A stretch of DNA of 64,000 nucleotides from a virus. The position numbers and the translations under genes are program-made. The stretch lies in IMG/VR virus record IMGVR_UViG_3300002461_000876; one strand, written 5' to 3'. Below, one piece after another: positions 11,916 to 61,440 of the stretch. The notes under the pieces were generated by a model. It was given only the letters and a program-made list of their open reading frames with translations. It ran no database searches and was not told the origin of the DNA. Each line of letters starts with the position of its first letter. The stretch's first letter is position 1.

Positions 11916-11974
11916 GGCTTTGCCCAAGAAGTCCGCGCTGCCCAAGAACCCCGACGCCTGCCCAAGAAATCAGA
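11916..11974. repeat. Left end: TIR plus three TGCCCAAGAA sites
   Basis: TGCCCAAGAA at 11921, 11939 and 11959. Confidence 0.9.
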
Positions 11975-12037
11975 ACCTAGGGTGTGCGACGGCTCCGCAC
12001 GGGATCCCATCCCGGCGGAGCCTGAGGCTGCCCGTGT

Positions 12038-12988
12038 TCAGTCCACAGGCGTGAATCGGAGCTGGACGTCGAAGGTGTAGTTGGCATCGTGGCCGTAGGC
12101 GACGAAGCCGTCGTGGAGGTAGTCGATCGGCACGAACGTGCACTCGCCGTCCTCGGCGTAGCAGGCGATGTTCATGGGGTCGTTGGCGCCGAGGCCGTCC
12201 TCGTCGGAGAAGACGATCGACAGCACCTCGTTGCTCTGGAATCCGTCATCGATGTCGCTGTTGATCTCCACCTCGGCGCAGTCGTCCCACGCGGTCATGA
12301 CCGTGTCGTCGTGCGTCTCGGACTTGAAGACCAGATCGCCGCCGTAGAACACCGAGAAGTAGGCGTCGGCGTAGCAGTCGTCGAAGTCCCAGCACGTGGG
12401 CGAGTAGTCCGCCCAGAGGCTCACGCAGATCAGGTAGGTCCGACCCCACGGACCGGCGCACTCCAAGTCCGGCGTGCACACCTCGTCGATCTCGCAGTCC
12501 GCACCCCAGAGACAGGCGACCGCTCCTCCGCCACATGCCACGCCGTAGTCGTCGCAGCAGTCGTCGGCCGCGAGGCACGACGTGTCGCAGCGGCACAGGC
12601 CGTCGTTGGACGAGCCGCCGCAGTTCCCCTCGCACGAACCTTCGCCGTCGCCGGTCTCGCCCGACGTCGGATCGGCGGTCGGGTCGACGGTCGGGTCGGC
12701 GGTCGGATCGCTCGGGTCGGCGGTCGGGTCCGGCTTCTCGGTGTCGCCCTCGTCGGCGCCGTCGGATCCGTCGAAGTCGACGCAGAGTTGCGACGCACAG
12801 ACCAGCTCGCCCATGCACGACCCGCCGGTGTCGCACCGGCAGCCTTCGGTTCCCGCTTCACAGTCGCTGTTCGTGTCGGTCGGCTGCGTCGCGATGCCAG
12901 TCATCGTCACCGACGCCACCTGCTGGCCATCGTCATCGCCGCCGCCACACGAGGCCAGCAGCACCATCGTCAAGATCGCGTGCTTCAT
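12038..12988 (-). CDS. Cys-rich lipoprotein with somatomedin-B domain (transposon cargo)
   Basis: Lipobox LLASC; PTADP linker; CEGNCGG...CRCDTSCLAADDCCDDYGVAC matches SMB cysteine spacing. Confidence 0.8.
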   Translation of the reverse strand: MKHAILTMVLLASCGGGDDDGQQVASVTMTGIATQPTDTNSDCEAGTEGCRCDTGGSCMGELVCASQLCVDFDGSDGADEGDTEKPDPTADPSDPTADPTVDPTADPTSGETGDGEGSCEGNCGGSSNDGLCRCDTSCLAADDCCDDYGVACGGGAVACLWGADCEIDEVCTPDLECAGPWGRTYLICVSLWADYSPTCWDFDDCYADAYFSVFYGGDLVFKSETHDDTVMTAWDDCAEVEINSDIDDGFQSNEVLSIVFSDEDGLGANDPMNIACYAEDGECTFVPIDYLHDGFVAYGHDANYTFDVQLRFTPVD

Positions 12989-13017
12989 CCTGAGATCTCC
13001 TCCGGTCGCGATGGTAG

Positions 13018-13031
13018 TGACCTATAGGTCA
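13018..13031. promoter_or_regulatory. Perfect 14-bp palindrome, candidate operator
   Basis: TGACCTATAGGTCA lies between the divergent lipoprotein and HTH genes. Confidence 0.5.
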
Positions 13032-13065
13032 TCGTGCAAGCACGTGGGCCCGCTAGGGTCCGGCG

Positions 13066-13284
13066 GTGCAGCCGGCCGACTTCCGCCGGATCGTCGAGCA
13101 GAACATCCGATCGCGAGCGAAGAAGCGCGGCTTGAGCCTGAACGCGCTCGCGGACCTAGCAGGGATCGCCCGCAGTCCGTTCTTCCGGGCACTGGCCGGT
13201 CAGGCGAGCTTCACGATCGACCGGCTGTTCAAGATCGCCGCCGCCCTGGAGTGCCGCGTCGCCGATCTTGTGGCCGAGCCTTGA
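13066..13284 (+). CDS. Small XRE-family HTH regulator
   Basis: RSRAKKRGLSLNALADLAGIARSPFFRALAGQASFTIDRLFKIAAALEC. Confidence 0.8.
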   Translation: MQPADFRRIVEQNIRSRAKKRGLSLNALADLAGIARSPFFRALAGQASFTIDRLFKIAAALECRVADLVAEP

Positions 13285-13551
13285 CGCAGCGGCCGGCGAC
13301 GTCGGCCTGGCGGTTCGCGACGTGCCAGGTGTTCGTCGAGCAGCTCGCCGACCTCGCCGACCCGGTCATGCTGAGGTTCCACGGCGTCGATCCGGTGCGT
13401 GACGCTTGAACGCTTGCGCGTGCGTGCAAGCGTCGGCGCTCGCGATCACGCATCGCGTCACGGATCGACCACGGTGGAAGTTCGCGACGATCGTCTGCGT
13501 AGCCAGGACGAGCGCCATCACGGCGTGCTCTCTCACCTGGAATGAAGCAGC

Positions 13552-13839
13552 ATGACAACTCGCGAACCCACCGTCTGGTGGTACGTCTACAAGGGCGTCA
13601 ACCCAACCCGCCGCCTCGTCTACCACGGAGTCGCGCTCGATCCTGTCGCTCGCGCCGATGGCTTCCACTGCCGCGGCTCCACAAAGGTCATCGGAGACTG
13701 GAAGTGCGAGCAAGAAGGCGTGAAGTGGACGACACTGTCGCGGCACTTGACCCAAGAGAAGGCTACCGCAGTGTCGCACGCTCTCGAACGCGGGCCGTCG
13801 ATGCGCGGATACACGAACATCAAGACAGGTGGCGTGTAG
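13552..13839 (+). CDS. Small GIY-YIG-like protein
   Basis: WYVYKG...VYHGVALDPVAR resembles the GIY-YIG bipartite motif with its conserved Arg. Confidence 0.5.
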   Translation: MTTREPTVWWYVYKGVNPTRRLVYHGVALDPVARADGFHCRGSTKVIGDWKCEQEGVKWTTLSRHLTQEKATAVSHALERGPSMRGYTNIKTGGV

Positions 13840-13840
13840 C

Positions 13841-14095
13841 CTAGTTTGAGATCGAGCGACGTGTTACGGAACAGCCACGCTCATGGAGAACAGTGTCTCC
13901 GCACTCCGGGCATGCGAGCCGAGGTCCCGGAGGCGGTGGATGCGGAAGATCCACGAACGGCGGGTGATACTCGCACGCCTCGCAGAAGCCACAGTCATCG
14001 CAGAATGCATCGGCGTGGCAGCTCGGGCACCGCTGCCCACGCCGATGCAGGATGACGCGCATGCCGTCGGCGCGAAGCCTTGTCTTGGTGGCCAT
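13841..14095 (-). CDS. Small Cys-rich Zn-finger protein
   Basis: CPSC, CDDC, CEAC, CPEC motifs in 84 aa. Confidence 0.5.
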   Translation of the reverse strand: MATKTRLRADGMRVILHRRGQRCPSCHADAFCDDCGFCEACEYHPPFVDLPHPPPPGPRLACPECGDTVLHERGCSVTRRSISN

Positions 14096-14215
14096 GCCGA
14101 CGATCGTCTGCAAGATGGCGGGAAACCACAAGGCCGCAGAGAGACTTCCGTTTTCGGCAATCTTTTCAATTCGGTGGCGCACTGCCACGTGCGCGATCGC
14201 CCATGTGCGCGCGGC

Positions 14216-14386
14216 CTACTTCTGCTTGGGCGTGTCCCACCAGGCGGACTTGCACTTGGGGCAGATCCGGGGCGCGTCGGCCTTCGCGGTCTTCTTCGCC
14301 TTCGTCGCGCGAGGCGTCCGGGCGATCCACTCGTGCCCGCACCGCTCGCACCGGTAGCCGGGAACCTTGATCGTGATCTCCGCCAT
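14216..14386 (-). CDS. Small Zn-ribbon protein divergent from the transposase
   Basis: MAEITIKVPGYRCERCGHEW...RICPKCKSAWW, 56 aa. Confidence 0.7.
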   Translation of the reverse strand: MAEITIKVPGYRCERCGHEWIARTPRATKAKKTAKADAPRICPKCKSAWWDTPKQK

Positions 14387-14394
14387 CACGCTGG

Positions 14395-14443
14395 AGCATA
14401 CGGTGACGACCAACCTTGTCAAGTTTACCGGAATAAGTATACC
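14395..14443. promoter_or_regulatory. Overlapping divergent sigma70-like promoters
   Basis: Minus strand TTGACA-16 nt-TATGCT (14422 to 14395); plus strand TTGTCA-16 nt-TATACC (14416-14443). Confidence 0.5.
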
Positions 14444-14464
14444 TTCATCGGACGTCGGAGCAGC

Positions 14465-15661
14465 ATGCAGGACGAGCGACAGCAGAAGGGCCTCCAGATC
14501 GCCCGAGCGAAGCGGATCAAGAAGGCCGCCGGCAAGCTGTGGGTCGTCCCCTCGCAGAGCCACGCCGGGACCTACGTCGTCAACGTGGCGATCGGCACGT
14601 GCACGTGCCCGGACCACGAGACGCGCGACGTCAAGTGCAAGCATCTCTGGGCCGTTGAGTACGTGCGCCATCGGGTCCTCAACCCCGACGGCACCAAGGT
14701 CGAGACCGAGGCACTCCGCGTCACGTACACGCAGAACTGGCCCGCCTACCACGCGGCGCAGTGCGCCGAGCAGGAGCAGGTCCAGCTTCTCCTTCGGGAC
14801 CTGTGCGAGCAGATCGTCCAGCCGCCGCACCACGGTCGCGGTCGACCGCCGGTGCTCCTCGCCGACGTCGTGTACGCCGCGACGTTGAAGATCTACAGCG
14901 GCGTCTCGGGGCGCCGCGCGACGACCGAGATCAAGGAGTGCGCGACCAAGGGGATGATCGAGCACGCACCCTGCTACAACACGATCTTCAACTACCTCGA
15001 CAAGCCCGAGCTGACGCCGCTGCTCACGGGGATGATCGAGCAGTCCGCCACGCCGCTACGGGCGGTCGAGCGGGACTTCGCGGCGGACTCTACGGGATTC
15101 TCCACCTCGGTCTACCGCCGCTGGTACGACCACAAGTACGGCCGCGAGATGAAGGAGCACACGTGGCTCAAGGCGCACGCCATGATCGGCGTCGTCACCA
15201 ACGTCGTGACCAGCGTCATCGTCACGCCGGGCGACGCCCACGACGCGCCCGAGTTCCCGGCTCTCGTCGCCGCGACCGCGCGCGGGTTCGAGGTGGCGGA
15301 GGTCTCGGCGGACAAGGCGTACCTGTCCCATGCCAACCTCGCCGCGGTCGAGGCGGCCGGCGGCAAGCCGTACATCCCCTTCAAGTCCAACTCGACCGAA
15401 CGCGGATCGCCAGCATGGGAGCGCCTGTTCCACCTCTTCGCCATGAACCGGCCCGAGTTCCTCGCCCACTACCACAAGCGGAGCAACGTGGAGGCCACCT
15501 TCTCGGCGATCAAACGGAAGTTCGACGGCTCGATCCGGTCGAAGCGGTACGACGCCCAGGTCAACGAGATCCTCTGCAAGTTCCTCTGCTACAACCTCGC
15601 GACCCTGGTGCACGCGATGTTCGAGCTCGGCGTCAAGCCGACCTTCGCCAAGGTCGCCTAG
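14465..15661 (+). CDS. DDE transposase (IS5/IS903-like) with N-terminal SWIM Zn finger
   Basis: SWIM CTCPD...CKHLWA; AADSTG, SADKAY and YHKRSNVEATFSAIKRKF catalytic motifs; 398 aa from ATG 14465. Confidence 0.92.
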   Translation: MQDERQQKGLQIARAKRIKKAAGKLWVVPSQSHAGTYVVNVAIGTCTCPDHETRDVKCKHLWAVEYVRHRVLNPDGTKVETEALRVTYTQNWPAYHAAQCAEQEQVQLLLRDLCEQIVQPPHHGRGRPPVLLADVVYAATLKIYSGVSGRRATTEIKECATKGMIEHAPCYNTIFNYLDKPELTPLLTGMIEQSATPLRAVERDFAADSTGFSTSVYRRWYDHKYGREMKEHTWLKAHAMIGVVTNVVTSVIVTPGDAHDAPEFPALVAATARGFEVAEVSADKAYLSHANLAAVEAAGGKPYIPFKSNSTERGSPAWERLFHLFAMNRPEFLAHYHKRSNVEATFSAIKRKFDGSIRSKRYDAQVNEILCKFLCYNLATLVHAMFELGVKPTFAKVA

Positions 15662-15899
15662 GTCGAGCGGGCCCGTCGTCGACGGCCCGCACGAACGGTC
15701 CCTGTAGCGGACGGGAGGCCGCCGACCAAGGCGATCGTCGTGATTGCCGCCCGCGAGCACGGACGACTCGCTTGTCACGGTCCTTGCCGGAGGACCCGGA
15801 TGATCTGCTCGGCGCTCGAAGTCCAAGGCGACCGCCGCGCCGGTCGTCATCGCGATGCAGCGGTCGACAACGACGCAGGTTCAGCGCGCCGAGCTCGGC

Positions 15900-16070
15900 G
15901 ACCGACTCGCCGGGGCCACGCACGTGCGGGGCGATCGTCCGATCGCCCCGCAGGTGGGCGACGAGCTCCGGCAGGCTCGAGACCGCGAGCACCTTGAGCC
16001 CTGGGATCAGCGTCGCCTCATCGGCGTTGTTCGCGGGCGATCACGATCGTCGAGACACCAGTGATGCCGT
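15900..16070 (-). pseudogene. Frameshifted fragment resembling ComM/YifB
   Basis: TIVI / PANNADEATLIPGLKVLAVSSLPELVAHLRGD is split over two frames and resembles the YifB N-domain end. Confidence 0.4.
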
Positions 16071-16294
16071 AGATCGGCGTCAGGCGGTTGGTGCGAGCGT
16101 AGTCGGCGAAGTCGTCGTAGAGCCCGACGCTCGGGGCTCGTCGTGGCCGAGGAGTCGGCCGGGCTGGTCGCTCAAAAGGCGCTCGCAACGCTGGGCTGAT
16201 CCCCAAGATGCTGAGTGCGCACAGGGCGCTCCACAACCAGTTGGGTCTGCCATCTTGACACACGCAACGAGTTGGGGATCGTCCCCTCTCGGCG

Positions 16295-16606
16295 TTGGAC
16301 TTCTTCGTACAACCTGTGCACACTTCCCAAGTGAACGGCTTCAAGATCCTAGTGATCGAGCGCGATGGCTATTTTGTCGCCCAGTCGCTTGAGAAGCACG
16401 TTGTGGTTCAGGCGCGGACTCTGGAGGATCTCCAGATGTACTTCATCGACACCCTGATGACGTACGCGTTCCTCGACGAACTAGCGGACGTCCCGCCCCT
16501 CAGCAGCCTCGAGCCCGCGCCGCCCGAGGTGTGGGAGCAGTGGAACGCCGCCAATCCGCTCGTGCTCCCGTCGGCGGACAAGTACGATTTCCGCCTTGCT
16601 GCGTGA
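16295..16606 (+). CDS. HicB-like antitoxin-fold protein
   Basis: ILVIERDGYFVAQSLEKHVVVQARTLEDL pattern; TTG start. Confidence 0.5.
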   Translation: MDFFVQPVHTSQVNGFKILVIERDGYFVAQSLEKHVVVQARTLEDLQMYFIDTLMTYAFLDELADVPPLSSLEPAPPEVWEQWNAANPLVLPSADKYDFRLAA

Positions 16607-16923
16607 TTCGCGACGGCGGTAGCATCCGAGGGGTGGCCGCACCTCTCGGATGGAGACCGACACTTCGCGAGTTCGCCAACGTGCTTGGGCGGCATCCGTT
16701 CGGCGTGAAGGTCTACGAGCACCCTGGAGCCTGCGCCGGGCACATCCGGCAGGCGTTCTTCGTACGCCGTGACTCCGCCGGGCGCGTGCGCACCGCCGTG
16801 CACCCGGCCGACTGGGACATGGTGGTCGATCCGATCCTGCTCACCGACCTCCTCAAGCGGCTCGGCATCGAGGCGGCGGACTACGCGAACGCGATCAACG
16901 AGGACGATCTCGAGGTCGGCTAG
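16603..16923 (+). CDS. Coupled partner of the HicB-like gene, possible toxin
   Basis: GTGA overlap; TLREFANVL...LLTDLLKRLGI. Confidence 0.4.
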   Translation: MIRDGGSIRGVAAPLGWRPTLREFANVLGRHPFGVKVYEHPGACAGHIRQAFFVRRDSAGRVRTAVHPADWDMVVDPILLTDLLKRLGIEAADYANAINEDDLEVG

Positions 16924-17070
16924 TACCTCGCGCCACGGTTCGATCCAGCGCCCGCTTCGGCGCTCGGGCAAGCGCGAGCGCCGTTCGCAACCGCGCGCCA
17001 ACTCCGTGGTGGCGCAACGTGTGCAAGATCGCAGCCTCATACTGCACGCACTGCTACGCTCATCGGCTCG

Positions 17071-18105
17071 ATGAACGATCCGATCACACCACGTGCCACC
17101 GCGGTCTCTGAGAAGAAGGACGCCGATGTGCTCGTCCTCAGCGGGTCGATCGACGACGACAGCTTCCGAAAGTTGCTCAACTACTGCCGCATGCGGACGA
17201 GGAAGAATGTGCTCCTCGTGTTGGTCACCAACGGAGGCGATCCGCATGCGGGCTACAAGATAGCCCGCATGCTGCAGCGAACCTACGAGAACTTCACCGT
17301 TCTGATCGCTGGACCGTGCAAGAGCGCCGGAACGCTCGTTGCTCTCGGGGCTCGCGAGATCGTGATCGCGGATACCGGAGAGCTAGGCCCCCTCGACATC
17401 CAGCTGCTGAGCCGGGAGCATCTCGGTGAGCGCGACTCGGGCAACGACATGACCTACGGGATCACCCACCTCGGGATCGACGCCATGGGCCAGTTCTTCG
17501 AGTGCTTCAAGACGCTCGCGTCGAGCCTTGAGACGAAGATCGCAGCTGAGGCTGCATCGAAGCTGGTCGGCCGGCTGTATGGCCGCGTCTTCGACTCCGT
17601 TCATCCGCGGCACATCGGATCGGTCGTGCGCGCCAACCAGCTCGGGTCCGAGTATGCCAAGCGCCTGATGTCACCGTCCAGGAACCCAAACATCGACAAG
17701 GCCATCCATCGGCTCGTGTACACGTACCCAGAGCACGGCTTCGTGATCGATCGGGAAGAGGCCGCGTCCTTCCTGCCCGGGGTGCGCGCTCCTGACTCAC
17801 TCGAACAAGACCTAGTCGACACTCTCCGGTGCCAGGAGGTGACTTCGAACACTTACGTGTTTCGGCTTGCGCCGGAACTTCCCAATGCCACAGAAAAGGA
17901 AGAGGATGCCCGCGATGAAGACGCCGCCGACACCGCAGCAGACGCCGAGCCCACTCCTGCAGGACCTGCGGCAGGCCCAGCGCCTCCGCCAGGACGCGGC
18001 CCGGGCGACGGCGGAGGGAGTGCGATCGCAGGTGACGCACGACCGGGAGCGACCGACGGTCCCGTCGGAGAACCTGCCGACGACGGTCCGCCCGTGACCA
18101 ACTAG
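17071..18105 (+). CDS. SDH_sah / ClpP-class serine peptidase
   Basis: TNGGDP, CKSAGTLVALGAREIVIADTGELGPLD, YPEHGFVIDREEA; low-complexity C-tail. Confidence 0.8.
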   Translation: MNDPITPRATAVSEKKDADVLVLSGSIDDDSFRKLLNYCRMRTRKNVLLVLVTNGGDPHAGYKIARMLQRTYENFTVLIAGPCKSAGTLVALGAREIVIADTGELGPLDIQLLSREHLGERDSGNDMTYGITHLGIDAMGQFFECFKTLASSLETKIAAEAASKLVGRLYGRVFDSVHPRHIGSVVRANQLGSEYAKRLMSPSRNPNIDKAIHRLVYTYPEHGFVIDREEAASFLPGVRAPDSLEQDLVDTLRCQEVTSNTYVFRLAPELPNATEKEEDARDEDAADTAADAEPTPAGPAAGPAPPPGRGPGDGGGSAIAGDARPGATDGPVGEPADDGPPVTN

Positions 18106-18506
18106 CCGAACTCCGGCCAAGCACAACGCCCGAGATCCGGTCGCGGCCGCCGCCCGCTTCGCTGGTTAGGCCCGAGACCGTGGCGCGAGGACCGTCGAGC
18201 CGGCGCTTGACCCGGCAGCGGCGCTTGTGTTCCTCGAATGGCTGATCGTCCGCGCCGTCCGCCGTAGCGTCCCGCGCGGTTCCGGGAGGAGCGTCGAAGG
18301 TCAAGCCCCAAACAGTTTGCGCGATGTGCCCGGTGCGCCCGATGCGACGTGGTGGGCGACCAACCGGCCGCATGTCGCGACTCGGATCGCATCCGGCGAA
18401 CTCGGCGCGCGCCAAAGAGTCTCTTCTGCTCCCGGACGTTCCGGCGGCGCTGGTGAGGCTCTGGCCCGCAGCGGGTACGTCTGGTCGTCGTGGTAGTGTG
18501 AAGACG

Positions 18507-19064
18507 ATGACGAGCGAGGAGTACGCCGACTGGGTCCGTCTCCGGGAGGCGGTGTTCGAGGCCCGTCAGAGTGCCGACGTGGCGCGCCGCTACTACCGCA
18601 AGATGGCGAACCGGTTCCGCAGAGTTGAACTCGGGATGAACATCGCGATGCTGACCGTGCAGGCGAGTGGCGTGGCTGCTTTGTTCGCTGAAGTTCCGGG
18701 CTGGTCGATCGCGTTGGGGATCGTCGCCGCCGTGCTCACGATCCTGGCGGCGATGCATCGAAACGGGGACCGGCGCGCAGAGCATCTACTCGCGGCCCGA
18801 ACCGCCGGAACGTCCCACGCGAAGTGGGATGAGCTGTGGCGCGAGATCTCCGGCACGCCGACATGGGGGACCGCGCTTGCGAAGCGGGTTAGCGCCGCGA
18901 CGAGCGTCGATGTAGAGAACGAGAATTCAATGACCGAGGAGCGAGTCCAGAAGCTGTGGACGGAAATGGAGAAGGCTGTGGTCCGGAGCATAGACCCGCG
19001 TGAGCTCGCGCCCGAGCAGCCGTCGTGGGTGGCTGAGCTTGGAATTCTTCCGGAAGGATCGTAG
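18507..19064 (+). CDS. SLATT-like 2-TM effector
   Basis: Helix, two TM segments, then RRAEHLLAARTAGTSHAKWDELWREI. Confidence 0.55.
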   Translation: MTSEEYADWVRLREAVFEARQSADVARRYYRKMANRFRRVELGMNIAMLTVQASGVAALFAEVPGWSIALGIVAAVLTILAAMHRNGDRRAEHLLAARTAGTSHAKWDELWREISGTPTWGTALAKRVSAATSVDVENENSMTEERVQKLWTEMEKAVVRSIDPRELAPEQPSWVAELGILPEGS

Positions 19065-19650
19065 AGATCCAGCATGTCTGATCCACGGCCCGGCACGAGG
19101 CAAGACGGTACGTACACGCGCAACCTGCCGCCGGCACGGCCCGCTGCGCCCTCTGTTCCGGCACCGCCACCTGCGGACGGCCCTGCAACCTCCACGCCCT
19201 CGACGCCTCCAGCGCAGCGCCGTTAGTTTCGGGGTCCCGCCAAAGCCCGGGCGCTGCCTTCGTGAAACTCCGGCCCCAAGCTCGGGCATCAAGCCCGCTA
19301 CAGCGCCAGGATCGTCGCCACCGCGGCCGTCCAGCGCCGAAGCTTCCGCTGCGCTCCGACCAGGCCGAGTTCAGGCCACAGCGACGCGACCGCCGACTCC
19401 ATGCTCAGCCTGCTGCTGGATTGCCTGGCGTCGCGGTACTCGGCGGAGCTGGCCGAGATCGAGGATGTCGGGCCGCGGCCGCGCGGGCACCGAACGTCAT
19501 CCGCGCCGTCGGGCAGTGCCCGACGTGACGAAGACCGACGCGCACGCACGCCGAGAGGCACATCGAAGCGCTCCGATGGCTAGATGACCAGGAGGCTCGT
19601 CCGGTCGTTCGTGCCGCGATCGGCCAACGGCTCGCGGAGCTGACCTAGCT

Positions 19651-19721
19651 CCGACGCGTGCCCAAGAAATCAGACGACTGCCCAAGAAGTCGCGCGTCCG
19701 ACCCATTTCTTGGGCAAAGCC
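19651..19721. repeat. Right end: two direct TGCCCAAGAA sites plus the inverted TIR
   Basis: Sites at 19659 and 19679; inverted site at 19707-19716; 19651-19674 matches 11951-11974 at 23/24. Confidence 0.9.
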
Positions 19722-19825
19722 ACATGAAGGAACTGACCAGGATCACCGAGCGTGCGGTCGGTCGAAAACCGGGCATGGTTCGACCCTCCGTCCGCTGGCC
19801 GCTACCCAAGTCGACGCGGGTTTGA
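19722..19825 (+). pseudogene. 3' part of the interrupted gene
   Basis: MKELTRITERAVGRKPGMVRPSVRWPLPKSTRV* continues the frame of 11453. Confidence 0.8.
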
Positions 19826-33496: not shown

Positions 33497-33775
33497 ATGG
33501 CGATCACGAGAAGAAAGCGTCCTATGGCGTCCGCGAGCTCCGCAGCGGAGCGACCCGGTGTTGTTCAGTCTCGGGTCGACGCCGGGGAATCCACTTCGCC
33601 ATCGTCGCCGCCGTCGACGCGACTCGACTTCCTTCGCTCCAAGATCGCGACGATGTCGAGAGACCTTGCAGCGATCCGAGCCTTGGCCTCCGAAGCGATC
33701 CGCTACGAGCGAGATGGCGACCTTGTCAAAGTCGTTGCGTTGTTGTCCAAGATCGAGGAGATCTCAAAGCCATGA
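33497..33775 (+). CDS. Hypothetical protein
   Basis: GAGGAG RBS. Confidence 0.55.
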   Translation: MAITRRKRPMASASSAAERPGVVQSRVDAGESTSPSSPPSTRLDFLRSKIATMSRDLAAIRALASEAIRYERDGDLVKVVALLSKIEEISKP

Positions 33776-34296
33776 CCCAGAATGATCCACATGCACAGTC
33801 GAGCACTCCGATCTTTCAAAGAGGTGGAGACCACAACGCCGTCGGAGATGCCAAGATCCTCGATCGTCTGCAGGCGATCCATCGGAAGTATCCCGACGTC
33901 GGCGTGTGCTGGGTCCTCATTCAAGGGCGAGTCATCACCTGCGATCGACCCAAGAGGTTGACGCCTCGTGGGATCCAGGCGCTGCTCCTCGACATCCCGT
34001 CGAGGTCTGAGGCCGGACTCGAGCCCAGCGAGGAGCCCACCGAGATCGAGCTCCAGTTCTTTGGTCGCTCCGCCGTCATCTTCGAACACGGATCCGACAT
34101 CTGCCTCGTCGAACTTCCTCTGGGCAGTAAGTCCAGGAAATCCCTGCGACGGTGCATCCTCAGCGTGTTCCGCCTGATCAACGAGATTCGAAGCGGATCG
34201 GGTCTCAAGATCGCGGACCTGAAGAAGCCTTCGCCGAAGAGGGCAAGATCGTCGAGGCCAGAATCTGCTCCTGCTCCTGCACAGGAAGTCACCTGA
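33772..34296 (+). CDS. Possible Roadblock/LC7-like protein
   Basis: Helix-strand pattern ending in GSKSRKSLRRCILSVF; similar ending in 41603..42004. Confidence 0.4.
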   Translation: MTQNDPHAQSSTPIFQRGGDHNAVGDAKILDRLQAIHRKYPDVGVCWVLIQGRVITCDRPKRLTPRGIQALLLDIPSRSEAGLEPSEEPTEIELQFFGRSAVIFEHGSDICLVELPLGSKSRKSLRRCILSVFRLINEIRSGSGLKIADLKKPSPKRARSSRPESAPAPAQEVT

Positions 34297-34305
34297 GGTC
34301 ACGGC

Positions 34306-35103
34306 GTGAGCATCTCCGACCCGATCGCGAAGATCACTCGCCTCCTGCGCATCGCAGATCGTCACCCAGACACCGATGAGGGGAAGACGGCTCGAGCGAT
34401 TGCGGAGCGCCTCATGCTTCAGCATGGTGTCGAGGTTGACCTCTCGGAGGTCGACGATCCGGATGCGTCCGTGGCTTCGACTGAATCGCAATGGATCGAT
34501 GTTGGGGTCTACGACAGGCGCGACGGGTGGAGGGCGAGACTCGCCGATGCGATCGGAGTCATGTTCGGTGTAGTTGTCGGATGGAGAGGGACCGTCGATG
34601 GTCAGGCGGGGCTCGGGATGACGGATCCCGAGCTCGACGCGGACCATCTCGTTGCAGCGATCTCCTACTTCTACACCCTGGAGCGCATCGTCATGAGCGT
34701 ACCGATCCCCCGCATCATTCCGACCACGCTCGGGATGATGCACGTCGCTCCGGATGACCCGCGCGTGAGCACGCTGATCCGAAGAGGGGTCTCCGATGCC
34801 ATCCTCGAGTACCTCGGTCGACTTCCACCGATCCGCTCGAGACCTTCGAATGATGTCGTGGTCGAGGACGCGGACGTCGTCCAGCGGAGTACGCTGGCGA
34901 TCGAAGGCGAGCCTGCGACGACAGAGTCGGTATCCATGGTTCGGATACGCAGGATCACCGTTCCTCGTCATGAGGAGATCCAGACCATCCCACCTCCGAT
35001 CCCGATCGCTGATGAGTTCGCCGGAGAAGCGACGTCCGACGAGGCCAGGATCTACAGCATGGGTGTCCTGAAGGGTCGACGACTCCACATTCCTCGGCCC
35101 TGA
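34306..35103 (+). CDS. DUF2786-domain protein
   Basis: KITRLLRIA...EGKTARAIAERLMLQHG. Confidence 0.75.
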   Translation: MSISDPIAKITRLLRIADRHPDTDEGKTARAIAERLMLQHGVEVDLSEVDDPDASVASTESQWIDVGVYDRRDGWRARLADAIGVMFGVVVGWRGTVDGQAGLGMTDPELDADHLVAAISYFYTLERIVMSVPIPRIIPTTLGMMHVAPDDPRVSTLIRRGVSDAILEYLGRLPPIRSRPSNDVVVEDADVVQRSTLAIEGEPATTESVSMVRIRRITVPRHEEIQTIPPPIPIADEFAGEATSDEARIYSMGVLKGRRLHIPRP

Positions 35104-35131
35104 GCAGGTCCGGTGGTAGGGTCGCTCCCCG

Positions 35132-35614
35132 ATGAGACGAACCCTCCTGGCCCTCCCCATCCTCCTCCTGGCATGCCCGAAGACCCCCCTCGACCCCTCG
35201 GGATCGATGAGCGGGTTCGATCCGACCTCTCCGGCGACCTCGGACGCTGAGCCGCCACCGCCGCCGCCCCCGGCGACCTCGGACGCCGAGCCGCCGCCAC
35301 CGCCTCCCCCGGCGACCTCGGACGCTGAGCCGCCACCACCGACCCTCCAGTGCCCTGGAGAGACCCAGTGCCCCTGCGTCGACGGCTGCCCCGACGGCCT
35401 GACCTGCGGCCCGACCAACGCCTGCACCAAGCCCTGCCGGGACAGCTCCGACTGCACCTCCGGGGTCTCAGGTGAGGCCTGCATCGCCGGCCTGTGTGGC
35501 GTCCCCTGTGCCCCAGAGGTCGAGGACGGCGGCTGTGGCCCCGCAGGGATGCCAGGGTCCGGGTGCTTCACCATTGGCCCCACCGAGCACTACTGCGGAT
35601 ACTCGCGCACCTAG
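35132..35614 (+). CDS. Cys-rich lipoprotein with Pro-rich tandem repeats
   Basis: LLLAC lipobox; PATSDAEPPPP three times; CPGETQCPCVDGCPDGLTC. Confidence 0.8.
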   Translation: MRRTLLALPILLLACPKTPLDPSGSMSGFDPTSPATSDAEPPPPPPPATSDAEPPPPPPPATSDAEPPPPTLQCPGETQCPCVDGCPDGLTCGPTNACTKPCRDSSDCTSGVSGEACIAGLCGVPCAPEVEDGGCGPAGMPGSGCFTIGPTEHYCGYSRT

Positions 35615-43624: not shown

Positions 43625-43812
43625 GCCTTGTGATCCATCAGGATCTTGGACGCTCCCGCAACGAAACGCTGCGCTGCGTCCATCGCACACCTCAGGTTCG
43701 CGAGCGCTTCATCGTCAGTCTTGGACGACTCTGCGTCTTCCATGTTGTTCACAACTGCGTCGGCTTCGTCACGCAGTCCGGCGTTGCTGATCTCTTCGAT
43801 GGTTGTCGGCAT
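43621..43812 (-). CDS. Small helical hypothetical protein
   Basis: Directly downstream of hairpin leader A. Confidence 0.6.
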   Translation of the reverse strand: MPTTIEEISNAGLRDEADAVVNNMEDAESSKTDDEALANLRCAMDAAQRFVAGASKILMDHKA

Positions 43813-43816
43813 CGTA

Positions 43817-43879
43817 TCTCTCCACGTCTTCGAGCCCGCACGCTCGGCCCAAGGTGGCTGCGTTACGGGCGGGCTCGAG
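43817..43879 (-). promoter_or_regulatory. Hairpin leader motif, copy A
   Basis: TCGAGCCCGCCCGTAACGCAG...CCGAGCGTGCGGGCTCGA-N-GACGTGGAGAGA ahead of ATG 43812. Confidence 0.8.
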
Positions 43880-44472: not shown

Positions 44473-44476
44473 GGTG

Positions 44477-44541
44477 GGTCTCTTCACGTCTTCGAGCCCG
44501 CACGCTCGGACCCAAGGGTCTGCGTTACGGGCGGGCTCGAG
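44477..44541 (-). promoter_or_regulatory. Hairpin leader motif, copy B
   Basis: Same motif ahead of ATG 44472. Confidence 0.8.
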
Positions 44542-49127: not shown

Positions 49128-49195
49128 TCCTCGAGCCCGCCCGTAACGCAGCCCCCTCGGGTCCGAGCGTGCGGGCTCGAGGACGTGGAGAGACC
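49128..49195 (+). promoter_or_regulatory. Hairpin leader motif, copy C
   Basis: 13-bp outer stem TCCTCGAGCCCGC/GCGGGCTCGAGGA; ATG at 49198. Confidence 0.8.
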
Positions 49196-49197
49196 TG

Positions 49198-49632
49198 ATG
49201 CCGACCAAGCCCAGCACCGACCCAGAGACCGCCGTGCGGGAGAAGAACAACTGGTGGAGAGACCCGAGGCCGACCAAGCCCAGCACCGACCCAGAGACCG
49301 CCTCGCAGGAGAAGAGCGGCTACCGCAAGTTCCGTCGACATGAAGTCGCCGCACGCTGGGCTTCCAACATCGGCCTCAGCCTCCTCTTGTTCGGACTCAT
49401 CGCGTCATCCGCAGGCGCCGATCAGATCGTGTCCCTGTGCTTCTTCGCCACAGGCGCCTCCATTCTCGCAGCCGGGCGAGTGATGGATGCCGAGCGGTTC
49501 GGAGGATACATCTCGATGATGCCTTTGCAACTTTCTCTCTTGCTCTTGTACTTCGGATTTGCCACCGGATGCTTCGCGGAGATCGCGGATCTCATTCGAG
49601 AGGATGGATCCACGACGGTGCCGACCGACTGA
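49198..49632 (+). CDS. Membrane protein with a duplicated N-terminal peptide
   Basis: PTKPSTDPETA twice; three hydrophobic segments. Confidence 0.65.
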   Translation: MPTKPSTDPETAVREKNNWWRDPRPTKPSTDPETASQEKSGYRKFRRHEVAARWASNIGLSLLLFGLIASSAGADQIVSLCFFATGASILAAGRVMDAERFGGYISMMPLQLSLLLLYFGFATGCFAEIADLIREDGSTTVPTD

Positions 49633-49643
49633 ACTTCTGGTCC

Positions 49644-49708
49644 CGAGCCCGCCCGTAACGCAGCCCACCCTTGGGCCGAGCGTGCGGGCTCGATGACGTG
49701 GAGAGACC
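49644..49708 (+). promoter_or_regulatory. Hairpin leader motif, copy D
   Basis: Same motif; ATG at 49711. Confidence 0.8.
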
Positions 49709-49710
49709 CG

Positions 49711-50616
49711 ATGCGAAAGAACAAGTACTTCCTCGCCATCCTCATCGCTGCGTGCGAAATGCCCACCGAGGGCATCCCCATCGAGGAGAGCAGCAGTTCG
49801 ACCAGCGAAGACCTGGAGACCACGATCACGACCAGCGTATCCGGGTCGTCCACGATCACCTCGACGTCGATCACGACCAGCGACCAGGAGGGTTCGGAGT
49901 CGAGCGAGTCGACCGATGATGGCTCGGGATCCGACTCGAGTTCCGGATCCTCGGAAACCGGTGAGCCCGTCGAGCCCAAGAGCTACGCCCTGGCCTTCGA
50001 CGGAGGTCTCGCGATCTCGGGTCCGACCAACATCGTCAACTTCGACGGTGACCCCTTCACGATCGAGATGTGGGTTCGGATCTCCGGCGACCTGCAAGGC
50101 GTCCTCTTCGACACCACGGTGACCGTCCCGGGCCCGAACGGCATGACGCTGGTCCGCGACCCCGCCTGGACTTCGACCAACGACGTCGTTTTCTACGACT
50201 TCGGCACGAACCCGCCCACCCAGCTCGGTGGCATGGATCCCGGGGTCGTCGCTCCGGGATGGCACCACGTCGCCTTCGTCCACTCCGGGTCCGCGATCAA
50301 GATGTGGGTCGACGGGAGCCTGGCCGCGACGCAGATCGTGGAGGTCGTGTCGGACAACGCCTCGGCTCCGATCGCGATCGGGACGCAGCCCACGACCCCG
50401 TTCGTTCCGTTGCGAGGCTTCGAGATCGACGAGCTCCGGATCTCGGTCGACGCCCGCTACGATGCCCCGTTCATCCCCCAGAGCCCCATGGGATCCGACG
50501 GCGCATCGCTGCACTGGACCTTCGACGAGGGCCAAGGTACTTCGGCGTCGGACTCGGTCTACGGGCTCGAGCTCGAGCTTTCCAATGAGGGCATCGACTG
50601 GATCGAGGTCGAGTAG
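49711..50616 (+). CDS. Lipoprotein with Ser/Thr linker and LamG/concanavalin A-like domain
   Basis: LIAAC lipobox; FTIEMWVR, WHHVAFV, MWVDG, IDELRIS, HWTFDEGQG. Confidence 0.85.
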   Translation: MRKNKYFLAILIAACEMPTEGIPIEESSSSTSEDLETTITTSVSGSSTITSTSITTSDQEGSESSESTDDGSGSDSSSGSSETGEPVEPKSYALAFDGGLAISGPTNIVNFDGDPFTIEMWVRISGDLQGVLFDTTVTVPGPNGMTLVRDPAWTSTNDVVFYDFGTNPPTQLGGMDPGVVAPGWHHVAFVHSGSAIKMWVDGSLAATQIVEVVSDNASAPIAIGTQPTTPFVPLRGFEIDELRISVDARYDAPFIPQSPMGSDGASLHWTFDEGQGTSASDSVYGLELELSNEGIDWIEVE

Positions 50617-55442: not shown

Positions 55443-56630
55443 TCAGAGGACCTCGTCGTTGATCCAGACGATGATCACGTCCTCGACCAGATCGTCATGG
55501 TTCGGATCCATGTACAGATCGACGTGTCCGTAGTCGGGCGTGAAGTGATCTTCGACATCGAAGGGGCTGGTCGACGTCAGGTTGACCTGGTCCATCATCC
55601 ACGGACCCATGCCTCGACCGCTCTCGAGCAACAGCACAGGCTCGTCGTAGACGTCGAGGTTGTCGACGAACTCATCATCGCCGCCGAGAGAGCAGTTGGC
55701 GTCTCTGATCTTGCGGATCGATGTGTAGTCCATGAACGTGGACGAGATGTTCCCGAACACGCGCTCTTCCGATCCGTAGAGGAAGGCGTCTGCGATGACA
55801 TCGCCTCGGACCAAGGAGAAGTTTGGTACCGCCGACGTGACGGGGCTCGGCGGTGGGGCATCGAGCAGGGCGATCACGAGCTGATGGAATGCCGGATCGA
55901 CCTGCGCCAGCGCGACGAGCATCTTCTGCTGCTGAGTCGATGTGTCGTAGACAATCCCCGACCCGAGCATGATGTCGAGGTCGTCGCAGATCGACGCGTT
56001 GGTCTGGATCACGTCGTCGTCGTCCGACCACATCGCGGATTCCCACAGCGCCAGGCCTCCGAAACTGTGGGGCCTACGATCCGCCATGGCGATCGCCATG
56101 GCACTTCCGTACGACAGACCGCCCGGGACAACCTTCTTCCACGGGTGACGATCCTTGATCCGATCGACGATGTAGAGCGCGTCATCGACGCTCGATTCCA
56201 GGCCCCAGTCTCCGATCGCGGAGCAGTCGACCACGAGGCCCTCGCACTGGCCGGCAGAGATCCCCGCCTCTCGAGGCGTGTACCCCCACACCTCGATACC
56301 CTCGCTTGCGAGTCTTCCCGCGAACGAAGACGACAGATCGTCATCCTCGTCGAAGGTGTACGTCGCGAATGTCGCAGCGAGCGGAGGAAGGGCGAGGAAG
56401 ACCGCTCGCGTCGGCTCGCCGATCTTCTTGACTCGATGCATCGTGAAACGATCCAGGGAGTCGCACCCGTCCTGCACGACCGTATCGGTCTGGACGTAGC
56501 CATCGTTCACGTCGATGTCGATGGAGACGATGTGCCGTCCCCACCATGCGTGAGCATCGGTGCAGAGAAGGGCGAGGATGGTGAACGTGATCGCGGCGAG
56601 AGAGGCTCTCATGCTCCTGATTTCCTTCAT
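55443..56630 (-). CDS. Secreted alpha/beta hydrolase
   Basis: Signal peptide (..AHA); GLSYG nucleophile elbow; YGHVD catalytic His region; start may be 56612. Confidence 0.75.
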
Positions 56631-56647
56631 GGGTGATCCTGGCGCGG

Positions 56648-57031
56648 ATGATACCCGCTCTTTCGACCCGCCCCAAGTACGAGGCTCACGTCTCACTTGC
56701 TCAAGATCAAAGCGCGCCACTGGCACTGGATCCTGCTCTTCCGACCCGATACGAGTCACGGAGATCCTGCGCGAATGCGAGATGTTCGGGCCCTGGAACT
56801 GGGTCCTGCTCTTCCGACCCGATACGAGGAGGCGTCCCACGAGACTGAGTGGGGCAACACAGACTGACACTGGATCCTGCTCTTCCGATCCGGTACGATG
56901 GTCTTCAATCGTCGACCCCACCTGGCACTGGGTCCTGCTCTTCCGACCCGGTGCGAGCCGATCTTGGCCGAGCCATGCGGGTGAATACTGGGCTCCTGGC
57001 ACCGGATCCTGCTCTTCCGACCCGGTACGAG
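56648..57031 (-). CRISPR. CRISPR-like array: five 36-nt repeats plus one degenerate terminal copy; no cas genes in window
   Basis: Repeats at 56720-56755, 56793-56828, 56864-56899, 56922-56957, 56996-57031 (plus consensus CTGGCACTGGATCCTGCTCTTCCGACCCGGTACGAG); degenerate copy ends at 56683; unique spacers of 36, 37, 35, 22 and 38 nt. Confidence 0.65.
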
Positions 57032-57067
57032 GTGAGGCCTCGGTCTTGCGTGCGTTGCTCCATTCGT

Positions 57068-57095
57068 CTCGCGTCGGATCGGAAGCTCAGGACAC
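57068..57095 (-). ncRNA. Inverted partial repeat (anti-repeat)
   Basis: CTCGCGTCGGATCGGAAGCTCAGGACAC matches the reverse complement of the adjacent repeat at 20/28, 36 nt after the last repeat. Confidence 0.5.
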
Positions 57096-57274
57096 TTCCC
57101 CGTTCGCAGATAGCCACCTCGATCCGAAGATTCGGGGCGAGGTTTGACGGCACTCTCCGGGGGCATCACATCGGGCATGCCCTGCCCTAGACCAGCTCGA
57201 TGCCGGCGACGTCGACCCTGCCACGGATCGGCATCGCTCGGCAAGGAAAAGTTTCCGAACCGGTCAGGTGAGTT

Positions 57275-59584: not shown

Positions 59585-60136
59585 TCAGCGTGACCAGACG
59601 AGAAGATGCTGGTTCTGGTCGGGTGACTGCTCACGTGGAAGGTCCTTGGGACCCACCGCGATGTTCCACCGCGACTCGTCGAAGTCGCTGGGGTAGAGGT
59701 AGGACCGGTGGGTTTCCATCGGGTTGCCGCCATCGGGGCCCTGCTCGTGGATCCCGTGAGGCATCTCGGCGATGACCATGGCGCGGCTCGCCAGTGACTC
59801 GAGGATGCTCAGTGCTGTCGCCTTGTCGACATGCTCTGGGCCCTGAAGCCAGATCACCACGGTGGGATGATCTGCGTGGGGCACGGCAATGAAGTCCTGG
59901 ATCGTCGCCTGGAAGACCTTCGCCTCGGGATAGACCTGCCTTGCCCATTCGGCGTTGGGTGCGAACGGTTCGACGATCATCACGCGACCACCGGTGGCGA
60001 TGACATGCTGATGGAATGGCAACTCTCGGTGGGTCTTCACACCGACCAACAGAAGGGTTGCGCCGTCGAGGAATCCGAGATCGGAAAGGAACCGACGCTC
60101 GGCGAGATACCCTGTGTCCCAGACTTCGTACGTCAT
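59585..60136 (-). CDS. Methyltransferase-like protein
   Basis: LLLVGV, IVEPFAPNAEWAR, QATIQDF, GPEHVDK. Confidence 0.6.
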   Translation of the reverse strand: MTYEVWDTGYLAERRFLSDLGFLDGATLLLVGVKTHRELPFHQHVIATGGRVMIVEPFAPNAEWARQVYPEAKVFQATIQDFIAVPHADHPTVVIWLQGPEHVDKATALSILESLASRAMVIAEMPHGIHEQGPDGGNPMETHRSYLYPSDFDESRWNIAVGPKDLPREQSPDQNQHLLVWSR

Positions 60137-60140
60137 CGAT

Positions 60141-60908
60141 CTACGTTCCTGGGATCGAGCGTATCACGTCGATCCCGTAGTAGGGGTGGTCGTTCATGAT
60201 CTTGTCGATCTCGAGCTTGACCTCTGGAGGTGTCGGATGCGCCTTGTCCCATAGATTGTTGACGACCGGGTGGAGATCTGCGTCTTCCGGTTGCCACTTC
60301 ACGAACCGCTCACGCCAGCCAGGTCTGAGCTCGGCCTGGTGGCCGTGACACGTCCACTTGTACCCCATGAGGTTCTCGCACTGCGCGTATCCGAAGTGCA
60401 AGACCTTGAGGTGATCGGGAAGCCGCCCTGTCGACCCGGCGCGGTGCCTCTGGTCGACGACCCTGATCGGAGCGAACGCATCCAGGACCATGTAGTCGAA
60501 GGACCTCCAGAAGTTCCAGAAGTTCGCCATCCACGCATAGGCACTGTTGCTGTTGGCGACGTGATCCAACGCCATCTCAGCATGGCCCTCAGGCCAGATC
60601 TCGTCCGCGTCCACGACGAGGACCTGGCAAGGCCCGTGCTTCTGCTGGATCGTCCTCAGCGCTTCCTCTCGGTGATGATGCTCGCTGTTCCATCTCCCCT
60701 CGATCCAGTGGACCGGCTTGGTCGCGAATCGAAGCGCCTGAGCCTTGAGTTCCTCGCGGGTGTCCGGACATGGGTACGGAGACTTGAATCCGTAGCTTGG
60801 GACGTCCGTGTAGAAGATGTAGATCGCATCGACTGCGTCTTGAATCGATCGGATCGACCAGGCGAGGTACTCCTTGCCGTAGTGGATCGCGTAGTAGGCA
60901 ACCTTCAT
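60141..60908 (-). CDS. Glycosyltransferase family 2-like protein
   Basis: YLAWSIRSIQDAVDAIYI, LVVDADEIW. Confidence 0.75.
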   Translation of the reverse strand: MKVAYYAIHYGKEYLAWSIRSIQDAVDAIYIFYTDVPSYGFKSPYPCPDTREELKAQALRFATKPVHWIEGRWNSEHHHREEALRTIQQKHGPCQVLVVDADEIWPEGHAEMALDHVANSNSAYAWMANFWNFWRSFDYMVLDAFAPIRVVDQRHRAGSTGRLPDHLKVLHFGYAQCENLMGYKWTCHGHQAELRPGWRERFVKWQPEDADLHPVVNNLWDKAHPTPPEVKLEIDKIMNDHPYYGIDVIRSIPGT

Positions 60909-60927
60909 GACTTTCGTTCTCCTCTTT

Positions 60928-61440
60928 CTACCGTGACTCGGATCGGGCATGGATCATCGAGATGACCTCATCGACCACGATCCGATCGTCGACTCTCTCA
61001 GGGCCGACGCTGGTTCGAGATGTCTCGACGAAGCCCAGCTTGTGGTACAGGCTTCTCGCCGTTGCGTTACTCGCGAGGACCTCGATCCACGGGATCTTGC
61101 CCTGGATCTTCGACTCCGCAACCAAGAATCCGAACACCAGTCTCCCGTAGCCCTTGCCTCGGAATCCAGGATCCATCGCTGCCGTGAGTGCGGCGTAGTC
61201 GGACATCGGATCCCAGGCGATGAGTCCGTATCCGACCGTGACAGGGGATCCGACATCGACGGCGGACTCGACGAGGTAGAGCGTCTTCTCTCCGCTCTTC
61301 ACCCACCGATCGAACCACTGACGCTGCTGATCCTCGGTGATCATTTCTCGATGTCGTGTCATGTACATGCGAGCTGCGTTCCTGATCGGAAGCACAGACA
61401 TCGCATCTTCGACACAGGAAGCCTCTCGGATCGTAGTCAT
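60928..61440 (-). CDS. GNAT N-acetyltransferase (PseH-like)
   Basis: IRN...ITEDQQRQWF, FRGKGYGR, VLASNATARSLYHKLGF. Confidence 0.85.
   Translation of the reverse strand: MTTIREASCVEDAMSVLPIRNAARMYMTRHREMITEDQQRQWFDRWVKSGEKTLYLVESAVDVGSPVTVGYGLIAWDPMSDYAALTAAMDPGFRGKGYGRLVFGFLVAESKIQGKIPWIEVLASNATARSLYHKLGFVETSRTSVGPERVDDRIVVDEVISMIHARSESR

Follow-up and report, generated by a model that had tools for sequence, protein, structure and literature searches.

How does a phage genome come to carry a CRISPR-like repeat array with no cas gene near it, and what might such an array be for? The question is raised by a stretch of 64,000 nucleotides from IMG/VR virus record IMGVR_UViG_3300002461_000876 (analysed over its whole length and called the window here), in which five diverged 36-nt repeats and a degenerate sixth lie on the minus strand at positions 56642-57031. 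An earlier description made from the letters of the window, the sequence-only reading, had called this a Cas-less array and had suggested a phage mini-array borrowing host Cas proteins, an RNA anti-CRISPR decoy, or a guide or decoy array recognised through the loop of its repeats. We find a CRISPR-like guide array in a phage-like genome, as this reading had it, and we find the same array type, together with a conserved RNA, at several distant places in that genome. With a probability of roughly 60% we read the locus as one dispersed module, consisting of trans-activating CRISPR RNA (tracrRNA) plus an array, of a TnpB-derived type V-like system, the effector of which (P0004, encoded elsewhere in the same genome) is probably a DNA binder.

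Mapping of the repeats confirmed the five 36-nt copies and the degenerate sixth. A 17-nt repeat core, searched with at most 3 mismatches, has 9 matches in the window where 0.79 are expected, and 0 of 100 shuffles reach 9. On the minus strand, where the repeat consensus is CTCGYAYCGGGTCGGAAGAGCAGGAYCCRGTGCCAG, the order is repeat R1 (56996-57031), spacer S1 (56958-56995, 38 nt), R2 (56922-56957), S2 (56900-56921, 22 nt), R3 (56864-56899), S3 (56829-56863, 35 nt), R4 (56793-56828), S4 (56756-56792, 37 nt), R5 (56720-56755), S5 (56678-56719, 42 nt) and the terminal, degenerate R6 (56642-56677), which is without the GTGCCAG tail. The spacers had been described as mostly 35-38 nt long; this is true of S1, S3 and S4, while S2 is short and S5 long. 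No two intact repeats are alike overall, while the 10-nt stretch GGAAGAGCAG is identical in all five, and both observations of the sequence-only reading therefore hold. Tandem Repeats Finder leaves the region unreported because the units are interspersed. With repeats that all differ, spacers of 22-42 nt and no spacer matches, this is not a canonical adaptive array.

The evidence for a guide function begins next to the array. An inverted match to the repeat, 26-30 nt long, is located 36 nt from R1, and it stands at the end of a conserved RNA of ~205 nt (57064-57270, minus strand). Since this structured RNA ends in a 26-nt anti-repeat, we take it to be a tracrRNA, the pairing being computed. 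Its 42-nt core (57149-57190), a GGGC/GCCC hairpin with a CCCC tract, shares 93% identity with the RNA that comes directly after the gene of the homologue P0008 on contig L013. It is joined by a box, GAACGGGGAAG (57095-57105), which occurs in every locus and pairs, through its GGGG, with the CCCC that follows the core. The anti-repeat (57068-57093) complements repeat positions 1-26 and corresponds to the inverted matches I1-I5, and the 36-nt linker from there to R1 (57032-57067) holds a motif, CGCACGCAAGA, that is conserved in the alignments. All of these elements are on the minus strand. The scaffold is 93-95% identical across three sister modules whose flanks are unrelated, and the 42-nt core recurs in the related loci L014, L015 and L019 and in an array-less mini-scaffold, with compensatory changes; the box/CCCC pair is C-G in the window type and U-A in L014 and L015.

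Folding agrees with this anatomy. On the minus strand the fold has -147 kcal/mol and z=-3.64 (none of 100 shuffles was as good), the first repeat pairing with the anti-repeat, whereas the plus strand has z=+0.11. Scored over 8 copies from 5 loci, a 25-pair scaffold structure is 93.8% paired. Shuffles give 82.7%, none of 500 being as high, and both sides have changed in 10 pairs; when the partners are slid by 1-3 columns only 33-52% remain paired. This structure was derived from the same alignment on which it was scored, and the copies amount to only ~5 independent sequence types. The computed duplex of the anti-repeat with its own repeat reaches -39.5 kcal/mol and is weaker with foreign repeats; the cognate duplex is the strongest in 4 of 5 loci, the anti-repeat of L014 slightly favouring the near-identical repeat of L013. 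Rfam holds no known family for the module RNA at either the gathering or a permissive threshold, and a literature search with scaffold core or repeat-tail sequences returned only noise.

Pairing with the anti-repeat also offers an explanation for the invariant 'loop' and the variable 'stem' of the repeats. The sequence-only reading had noted that stem changes keep the hairpin paired, and the pattern is real, but wobble tolerance towards a fixed anti-repeat explains it equally well. Among 20 repeats from four modules, 431 of 440 cells (98%) keep pairing at the 22 repeat:anti-repeat positions; for the intramolecular hairpin the figure is 179 of 200 (89.5%). The often-variable repeat sites 5 (Y vs G), 11 (R vs U) and 26 (Y vs G) are wobble-tolerant, variable site 7 lies in a 2x2 internal loop and site 29 is beyond the duplex. 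In the five intact repeats of the window the hairpin pair 11/26 is G-C, G-U or A-U (the A-U variant in R3), and over the 20 repeats A-C occurs as well, so that covariation specific to the hairpin is not demonstrated. The repeat's own hairpin folds at -17 kcal/mol, and the repeats of relatives fold less well (-9 to -15 kcal/mol). The 10-nt 'loop' appears, from the predicted pairing, to be the centre of the repeat:anti-repeat duplex, and it has to stay fixed because one anti-repeat serves all repeats of a module. In place of the proposed recognition through the loop, the simpler reading is that this segment base-pairs with the tracrRNA anti-repeat. The repeat hairpin may still matter, but what the family as a whole has conserved is the tracrRNA pairing.

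The window belongs to a larger genome. Over 19.6 kb it is 99.995% identical to ENA contig k127_126615 (175,068 bp) from an activated-carbon metagenome (run SRR2905791, PRJNA301005), and a protein look-up placed both the window's Gmd and a protein beside the array of an LNFM metagenome contig on that contig. Contig coordinates, marked K, equal window coordinates plus 96,486. The contents of the contig are phage-like, with a terminase-large-subunit-like protein, a Dda-like helicase, a primase/helicase and a protease, and it also carries thymidylate synthase and kinase, an HNH protein and tRNAs. It holds four modules of tracrRNA and array, with cores at K 52,176(+), 78,404(-), 83,419(-) and 153,676(-), the last being the module of the window; at K 64,212(+) the scaffold core occurs once more, without an array. 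The four loci have only the module in common: their gene contexts differ, and the idea that a shared neighbouring protein is the effector was dropped, as no neighbour is common to the modules.

Several observations concern these sister copies. Inside one repeat of a sister array (L003:354-461, K ~77.85-77.96 kb) lies a tRNA-Glu(UUC) gene in array orientation, placed between the first ~23 nt of the repeat and its last 12 nt (CATCGGTGCCAG); by its position, tRNA processing would free the repeat tail plus spacer minus the tracr-pairing part. The array-less scaffold (L011:16461-16640, K ~64.2 kb) has a 43-nt core that is 98% identical and the GAACGGGGAAG box. It skips the duplex and runs into a repeat-tail-like TCGATGCCAG and then unique sequence, 3 kb downstream of the tnpB-like gene (P0004), and it resembles a single guide of the fused, omegaRNA-like kind. 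Independent assemblies (the ends of LNFM01000446.1 and of L007) break exactly within 76 shared nt of the tracr/first-repeat region. Judged from coordinates only, the 101.8-kb LNFM contig would fit a circular or circularly permuted genome of ~175-177 kb. Separately, a 1.2-kb contig, ORJL011614428.1 (L005:1088-1243), carries spacer-less tandem 38-nt units with a similar hairpin, GGGTCC-GAAGAGCA-GGACCC.

Four different gene contexts are difficult to reconcile with the possibility that the repeats are no guide array at all but another structured RNA, for example a regulatory leader of the neighbouring hydrolase gene, a small RNA or an array of protein-binding hairpins. The repeat does make a good hairpin of its own (-17 kcal/mol) and the array does lie directly upstream of a same-strand gene; homologous modules abut TnpB-like genes elsewhere, however, and no Rfam family is matched, and we regard this possibility as very remote.

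Outside this phage the repeat was hardly seen. In metagenome contigs it forms arrays only in LNFM01000446.1 (two arrays) and LNFM01028511.1; searches of IMG/VR with the repeat, the element or the array pattern gave 0 matches, isolate phages none and plasmids only chance-level fragments, and as an array it is present in 0 of 185,579 species genomes, with one single-copy chance match. The array repeat is thus confined to assemblies of this phage. This bears directly on the first two suggestions of the sequence-only reading, according to which the phage would exploit or jam a host CRISPR-Cas system through host-like repeats, either with a mini-array that borrows host Cas or with a decoy of the RNA anti-CRISPR (Racr) type. 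Racr elements and viral mini-arrays are typically phage-borne, have no cas genes beside them and show odd spacer lengths. Nevertheless, none of the 185,579 species genomes offers an array with this repeat, the phage encodes its own cognate effector family, and each module has its own tracrRNA, which would be needless for a decoy of class 1 or Cas12a repeats. Both suggestions are left unsupported, and we think it highly improbable that either is correct.

Within the 64 kb of the window we found no cas-like gene, in agreement with the sequence-only reading: the profile of the effector clade described below, run against all six frames, gave a best E of 1.3, and Pfam and PHROG scans of the large open reading frames (ORFs) of the window gave none either. 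Two candidates were set aside in the course of this search. A 592-aa ORF (13883-15661) with 'transposase' PHROG matches is no TnpB but has SWIM and DDE_Tnp_1 domains and is an IS4-type transposase, and a 626-aa ORF (33703-35583) reads as low-complexity non-coding sequence. At the level of the genome, however, the array is not Cas-less. The same 175-kb contig encodes P0004, a TnpB/Cas12-like protein of 430 aa whose gene lies outside the window at K 59,860-61,152 (L011:12130-13422). It has the Pfam domains HTH_OrfB_IS605, OrfB_IS605 and Cas12f1-like TNB, and in a profile search it was the sole TnpB-like gene in the ~116 kb examined of the 175,068-bp contig. Its gene lies ~7 kb downstream of the module at K 52 kb, on the same strand, and ~82-93 kb from the array of the window.

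The link between this protein and the RNAs comes from relatives. Proteins encoded at L013, L014, L015 and L019 are 47-61% identical to P0004, and each of these four readable relatives shows, directly downstream of the gene and on its strand, first the 42-nt core, then the GAACGGGGAAG box, the cognate anti-repeat and the array. L013 (PPFU01000295.1, 80.6 kb, phage-like) has a 93% identical core and, unlike the window, 12 identical 36-nt repeats; L014 (JBFOMX010003604.1) has 12-14 repeats, which are more diverged away from the tracrRNA, and its spacers are short (17-22 nt); on L015, which is a JGI contig, there are 7 diverged repeats; and the contig of L019 stops within the first repeat. The control was a set of 19 phage TnpB relatives in IMG/VR that are more distant; nearly all 19 have the canonical DRDxNAA motif, and 17 are without an array. 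The order of gene, tracrRNA and array in the relatives, the asymmetry of the fold and the co-oriented tRNA-Glu also back the minus-strand polarity that had been proposed for the array. We consider it very probable that array and scaffold are a tracr-dependent guide module of the effector family of P0004. In two relatives the array is directly followed by convergent genes of the sigma-70 family or with a sigma region-4/helix-turn-helix domain (L015:3716-4864 and L014:6424-7146, both minus), and the genome of the window encodes an 84-aa sigma region-4 protein (L010:1937-2191, minus). This recalls the association of dCas12f with sigmaE, but it may be a coincidence in phage genomes.

It might also be asked whether the arrays are decaying relics, unused and kept by neutral drift or as transcribed passengers of neighbouring operons. 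The four tracrRNA copies, 93-95% identical despite their unrelated flanks, are not what one would expect in this case; changes in the repeats leave 98% of the positions paired with the anti-repeat, the effector ORF is unbroken, a 96% identical copy of it (P0005) exists on another contig, and L014 and L015 carry similarly diverged arrays beside intact genes. On the other hand, decay would account for repeats that all differ, for irregular spacers (16-42 nt), for the lack of visible adaptation genes and of targets, and for an effector gene that lost its adjacent tracrRNA and array. Altogether we regard decay as improbable.

What the effector does with its DNA target is a more difficult matter. 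P0004 aligns with ISDra2 TnpB over the full length (E~1e-27, and 4e-80 with the clade profile). D215 and E308 correspond to the catalytic residues D191 and E278 of ISDra2 TnpB, but opposite D361 stands Q409, within the motif TRQINTA, and an intact D-E-D RuvC triad is accordingly absent from P0004 (D215-E308-Q409). All 15 close relatives (41-96% identity) have TRQxNTA, outgroup TnpBs DRDxNAA. An exhaustive homologue search yielded 207 representatives at E<=1e-30, and in the triad columns, read over 246 aligned proteins, D-E-D occurs in 168, D-E-Q in 35 and D-E-R or D-E-P in 9. In a quick maximum-likelihood tree a clade of 37 with 99% support contains Q in 33, R in 2, P in 2 and D in 0, which points to one ancient replacement of the RuvC-III Asp by Gln that has been retained since. 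The C-terminus of the clade extends ~16-20 residues past the RuvC-III motif, whereas it is longer in outgroup TnpBs, and there is an Arg-rich insert after RuvC-II. A different phage TnpB-like protein, L028:4477-5002 (IMGVR_UViG_2934356561_000002), has His for the RuvC-III Asp (PRHENAV) and is followed by a 4-copy repeat array; it may be another array-linked lineage with an altered RuvC.

We read P0004 as a DNA binder because one catalytic carboxylate is replaced and the C-terminus is short, and we hold it to be about as likely as not that the effector is a binder and not a cutter. The alternative is that architecture and partner are the same but the D-E-Q site is rearranged and still active, so that the modules direct cleavage of rival phages, plasmids or the host chromosome. 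Neither Asp215 nor Glu308 varies, and the conservation of Gln409 throughout a deep clade is specific, which is not the picture of random loss; conserved substitutions in RuvC-III have been argued often to keep activity (PMC10691335), and the closest characterised relatives, TnpB, Cas12n and TranC, are nucleases. Yet the RuvC-III Asp is among the three carboxylates of ISDra2 TnpB (D191/E278/D361), Gln supplies none, and at the level of the sequence no compensating acidic residue was identified. Furthermore, a C-terminus ending ~16-20 residues past the motif is like that of the nuclease-dead TldR and dCas12f proteins. An active nuclease seems to us rather unlikely, although clearly worth keeping in mind.

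As a tracr-dependent DNA binder, the system would most likely work in the following way. The scaffold RNA would be transcribed from the minus strand, from 57270 to 57064, with the anti-repeat at its 3' end, and the 26-nt anti-repeat would pair with positions 1-26 of every 36-nt repeat. After processing, what is left of the repeat, a 10-nt tail (...GTGCCAG), would supply the guide together with the spacer of 16-38 nt next to it, 3' of the scaffold. This would give the order scaffold, anti-repeat:repeat duplex, 10-nt repeat tail and guide, as in TnpB omegaRNA and in the guides of Cas12f and Cas12n. Probably only the 16-20 nt of the spacer proximal to the repeat would be used, so that the occasional spacers of 16-22 nt would still give working guides. 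P0004, loaded with these RNAs and presumably no longer able to cleave, would bind guide-matched DNA without cutting it and silence genes of the host or of rival elements in the manner of CRISPR interference (CRISPRi). Tentatively, one may go further and imagine a hard-wired, multi-locus CRISPRi-like regulon of the phage, in which one nuclease-inactive protein is served by four tracr+array operons and a fused guide, with ~20 fixed guides silencing host or rival-phage genes; we hold this to be possible rather than probable. In such a regulon the modules, lying in different phage gene clusters, would let the guide supply follow the timing of each cluster, and the arrays would evolve by point mutation constrained by pairing with their own tracrRNA, without spacer acquisition.

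A number of points weigh against this interpretation. No protospacer was found for any spacer in the DNA of these loci, in isolate phages, in plasmids or in IMG/VR. All spacers, compared with 220 kb of DNA from these loci, and their repeat-proximal 16-mers, compared with at most 2 mismatches, gave chance-level matches only; four window spacers searched as 22-mers had no matches in IMG/VR, the array spacers of L013 and L014 had none in isolate phages, and a search of plasmids and isolate phages yielded no protospacer. It follows that no target and no target- or protospacer-adjacent motif (TAM or PAM) can be derived. In the window's own genome the P0004 gene is followed by other ORFs and adjoins no module, the four arrays being ~7 to 93 kb distant, so that its proposed link to the modules relies on homology and on synteny in relatives; the unseen ~59 kb of the contig (K 1-39,756, 90,203-96,486 and 161,927-175,068) could hold another effector. 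The repeat's own hairpin competes with tracrRNA pairing. With Asp and Glu unchanged throughout and Gln conserved, the site may be rearranged but active, and not dead, and the arrays, all of whose repeats differ and which have no adaptation module, could be old or decaying. As a separate observation, spacer 5 of L014 (17 nt), which belongs to a different phage, matches L010:10523-10538 (K ~50.28 kb), in a radical-SAM-like gene of the window's phage, at 15 of 16 repeat-proximal bases; with ~0.4 such matches expected by chance this is not significant alone.

The surroundings of the array in the window are those of a nucleotide-sugar and glycosylation cluster, with Gmd, an epimerase, a DegT aminotransferase, a GNAT protein and glycosyltransferases. 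The array sits between two minus-strand genes of this cluster, and the upstream one (169 aa) ends at 57275. A public gene call at 55443-57002 on the minus strand (519 aa) is an over-extended ORF that spans the whole array. Most likely this downstream gene, an alpha/beta-hydrolase by Pfam, truly begins at the ATG at 56612; an AGGAG site lies upstream of this codon, and the N-terminus that it opens resembles a signal peptide. Elsewhere in the window, an insert of higher GC content (0.65-0.69) at 11900-19730 contains the 592-aa transposase (13883-15661) and a ClpP/SDH-type protease-like gene (17071-18105). An intergenic element of ~65-80 nt is present in four copies (43800-43878, 44476-44540, 49128-49207 and 49644-49714) and again at L002:1152-1233; the copies are 89-98% identical to one near the module at K 52 kb and form a repeat family distinct from the array.

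That TnpB-derived RNA-guided binders such as TldR and dCas12f act as natural transcription regulators is a recent insight, and some of them serve phages in reprogramming their hosts. The clade described here is a deep, uncharacterised TnpB lineage with at least 35 cluster representatives in which large phages have kept a split tracrRNA and CRISPR RNA (crRNA). Guide units scattered far from the effector, together with a fused guide, bear on how omegaRNA may split into tracrRNA and crRNA and fuse again. The locus also illustrates that an 'orphan' phage array is open to misreading when only its neighbourhood is inspected. With its 430 aa, P0004 is a compact candidate for programmable DNA binding, while the biological payoff hinges on finding the targets.

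It remains to place the system among those already known. Against solved relatives the clade profile scores E=4e-80 for ISDra2 TnpB, 1e-72 for RdCas12n (PDB 9J09) and 2e-28 for LaTranC (9JFO/9JFQ). In bits it is no closer to Cas12n than to TnpB (RdCas12n 248, ISDra2 TnpB 272), and assignment to the PADLOC family 'Cas12u4' was rejected as non-diagnostic, because ordinary TnpBs reach 225-295 bits where the clade reaches 241-259. The organisation is like that of Cas12n (V-N, formerly V-U4): a TnpB-sized effector, a tracrRNA of ~170-200 nt at or near the 3' end of the gene, a same-strand array downstream, a guide placed 3' of the scaffold and the lack of adaptation genes, with a full-length match of the clade profile to 9J09. 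However, Cas12n is an active D-E-D nuclease of actinobacterial chromosomes, whereas here we find D-E-Q on phage-like contigs and, in the genome of the window, tracr+array units that are multiplied and detached from the gene. TranC proteins (transposon-CRISPR intermediates) likewise combine a TnpB-like protein with split tracrRNA/crRNA and arrays, and split and fused guides coexist among them, as four tracr+array modules coexist here with one fused mini-scaffold; but they have been described as nucleases, the RuvC-III of our clade is substituted, and the similarity to LaTranC is only moderate.

Among inactive relatives, TldR proteins are TnpB-like nuclease-dead repressors, some of them phage-encoded (10.1101/2023.11.30.569447). 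They share with P0004 the TnpB homology, the compromised RuvC and the short C-terminus, and the predicted RNA-guided DNA binding that blocks transcription. TldR differs in using one adjacent single guide RNA with a fixed guide of 9-16 nt and no array or tracrRNA; in the genome of the window ~20 guides would come from split tracrRNAs and arrays, only the mini-scaffold at L011:16482-16600 looks fused, and of the three catalytic residues just one has been replaced, by a conserved Gln. Nuclease-dead Cas12f proteins include dCas12f-sigmaE and a cluster located beside CRISPR arrays that has been proposed to act in repression (PMC13472631), and dCas12f is, as P0004 probably is, a RuvC-inactivated miniature type V effector. 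It is Cas12f-derived, however, and distant from our clade (E ~1e-11 vs 1e-80 for TnpB), as Cas12m is also, no tracrRNA has been found for dCas12f-sigmaE, and its carriers are Bacteroidetes and not large phages. Cas12k, Cas12m and Cas12c are precedents for type V effectors that bind without cutting, in transposition targeting and in transcriptional silencing, but they are larger and of other lineages, and Cas12k works with Tn7 genes, none of which is present here. Finally, a 2023 survey of TnpB and Cas12 lists 40 array-associated V-U groups and several branches with altered RuvC-III, in some of which conserved substitutions can mark rearranged active sites (PMC10691335), and the clade of P0004 may be among these V-U (V-U6-45) or RuvC-III-altered branches. 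In comparison with all of these systems, what is new is a conserved D-E-Q lineage in large phages and the multiplication and dispersal of its tracr+array units.

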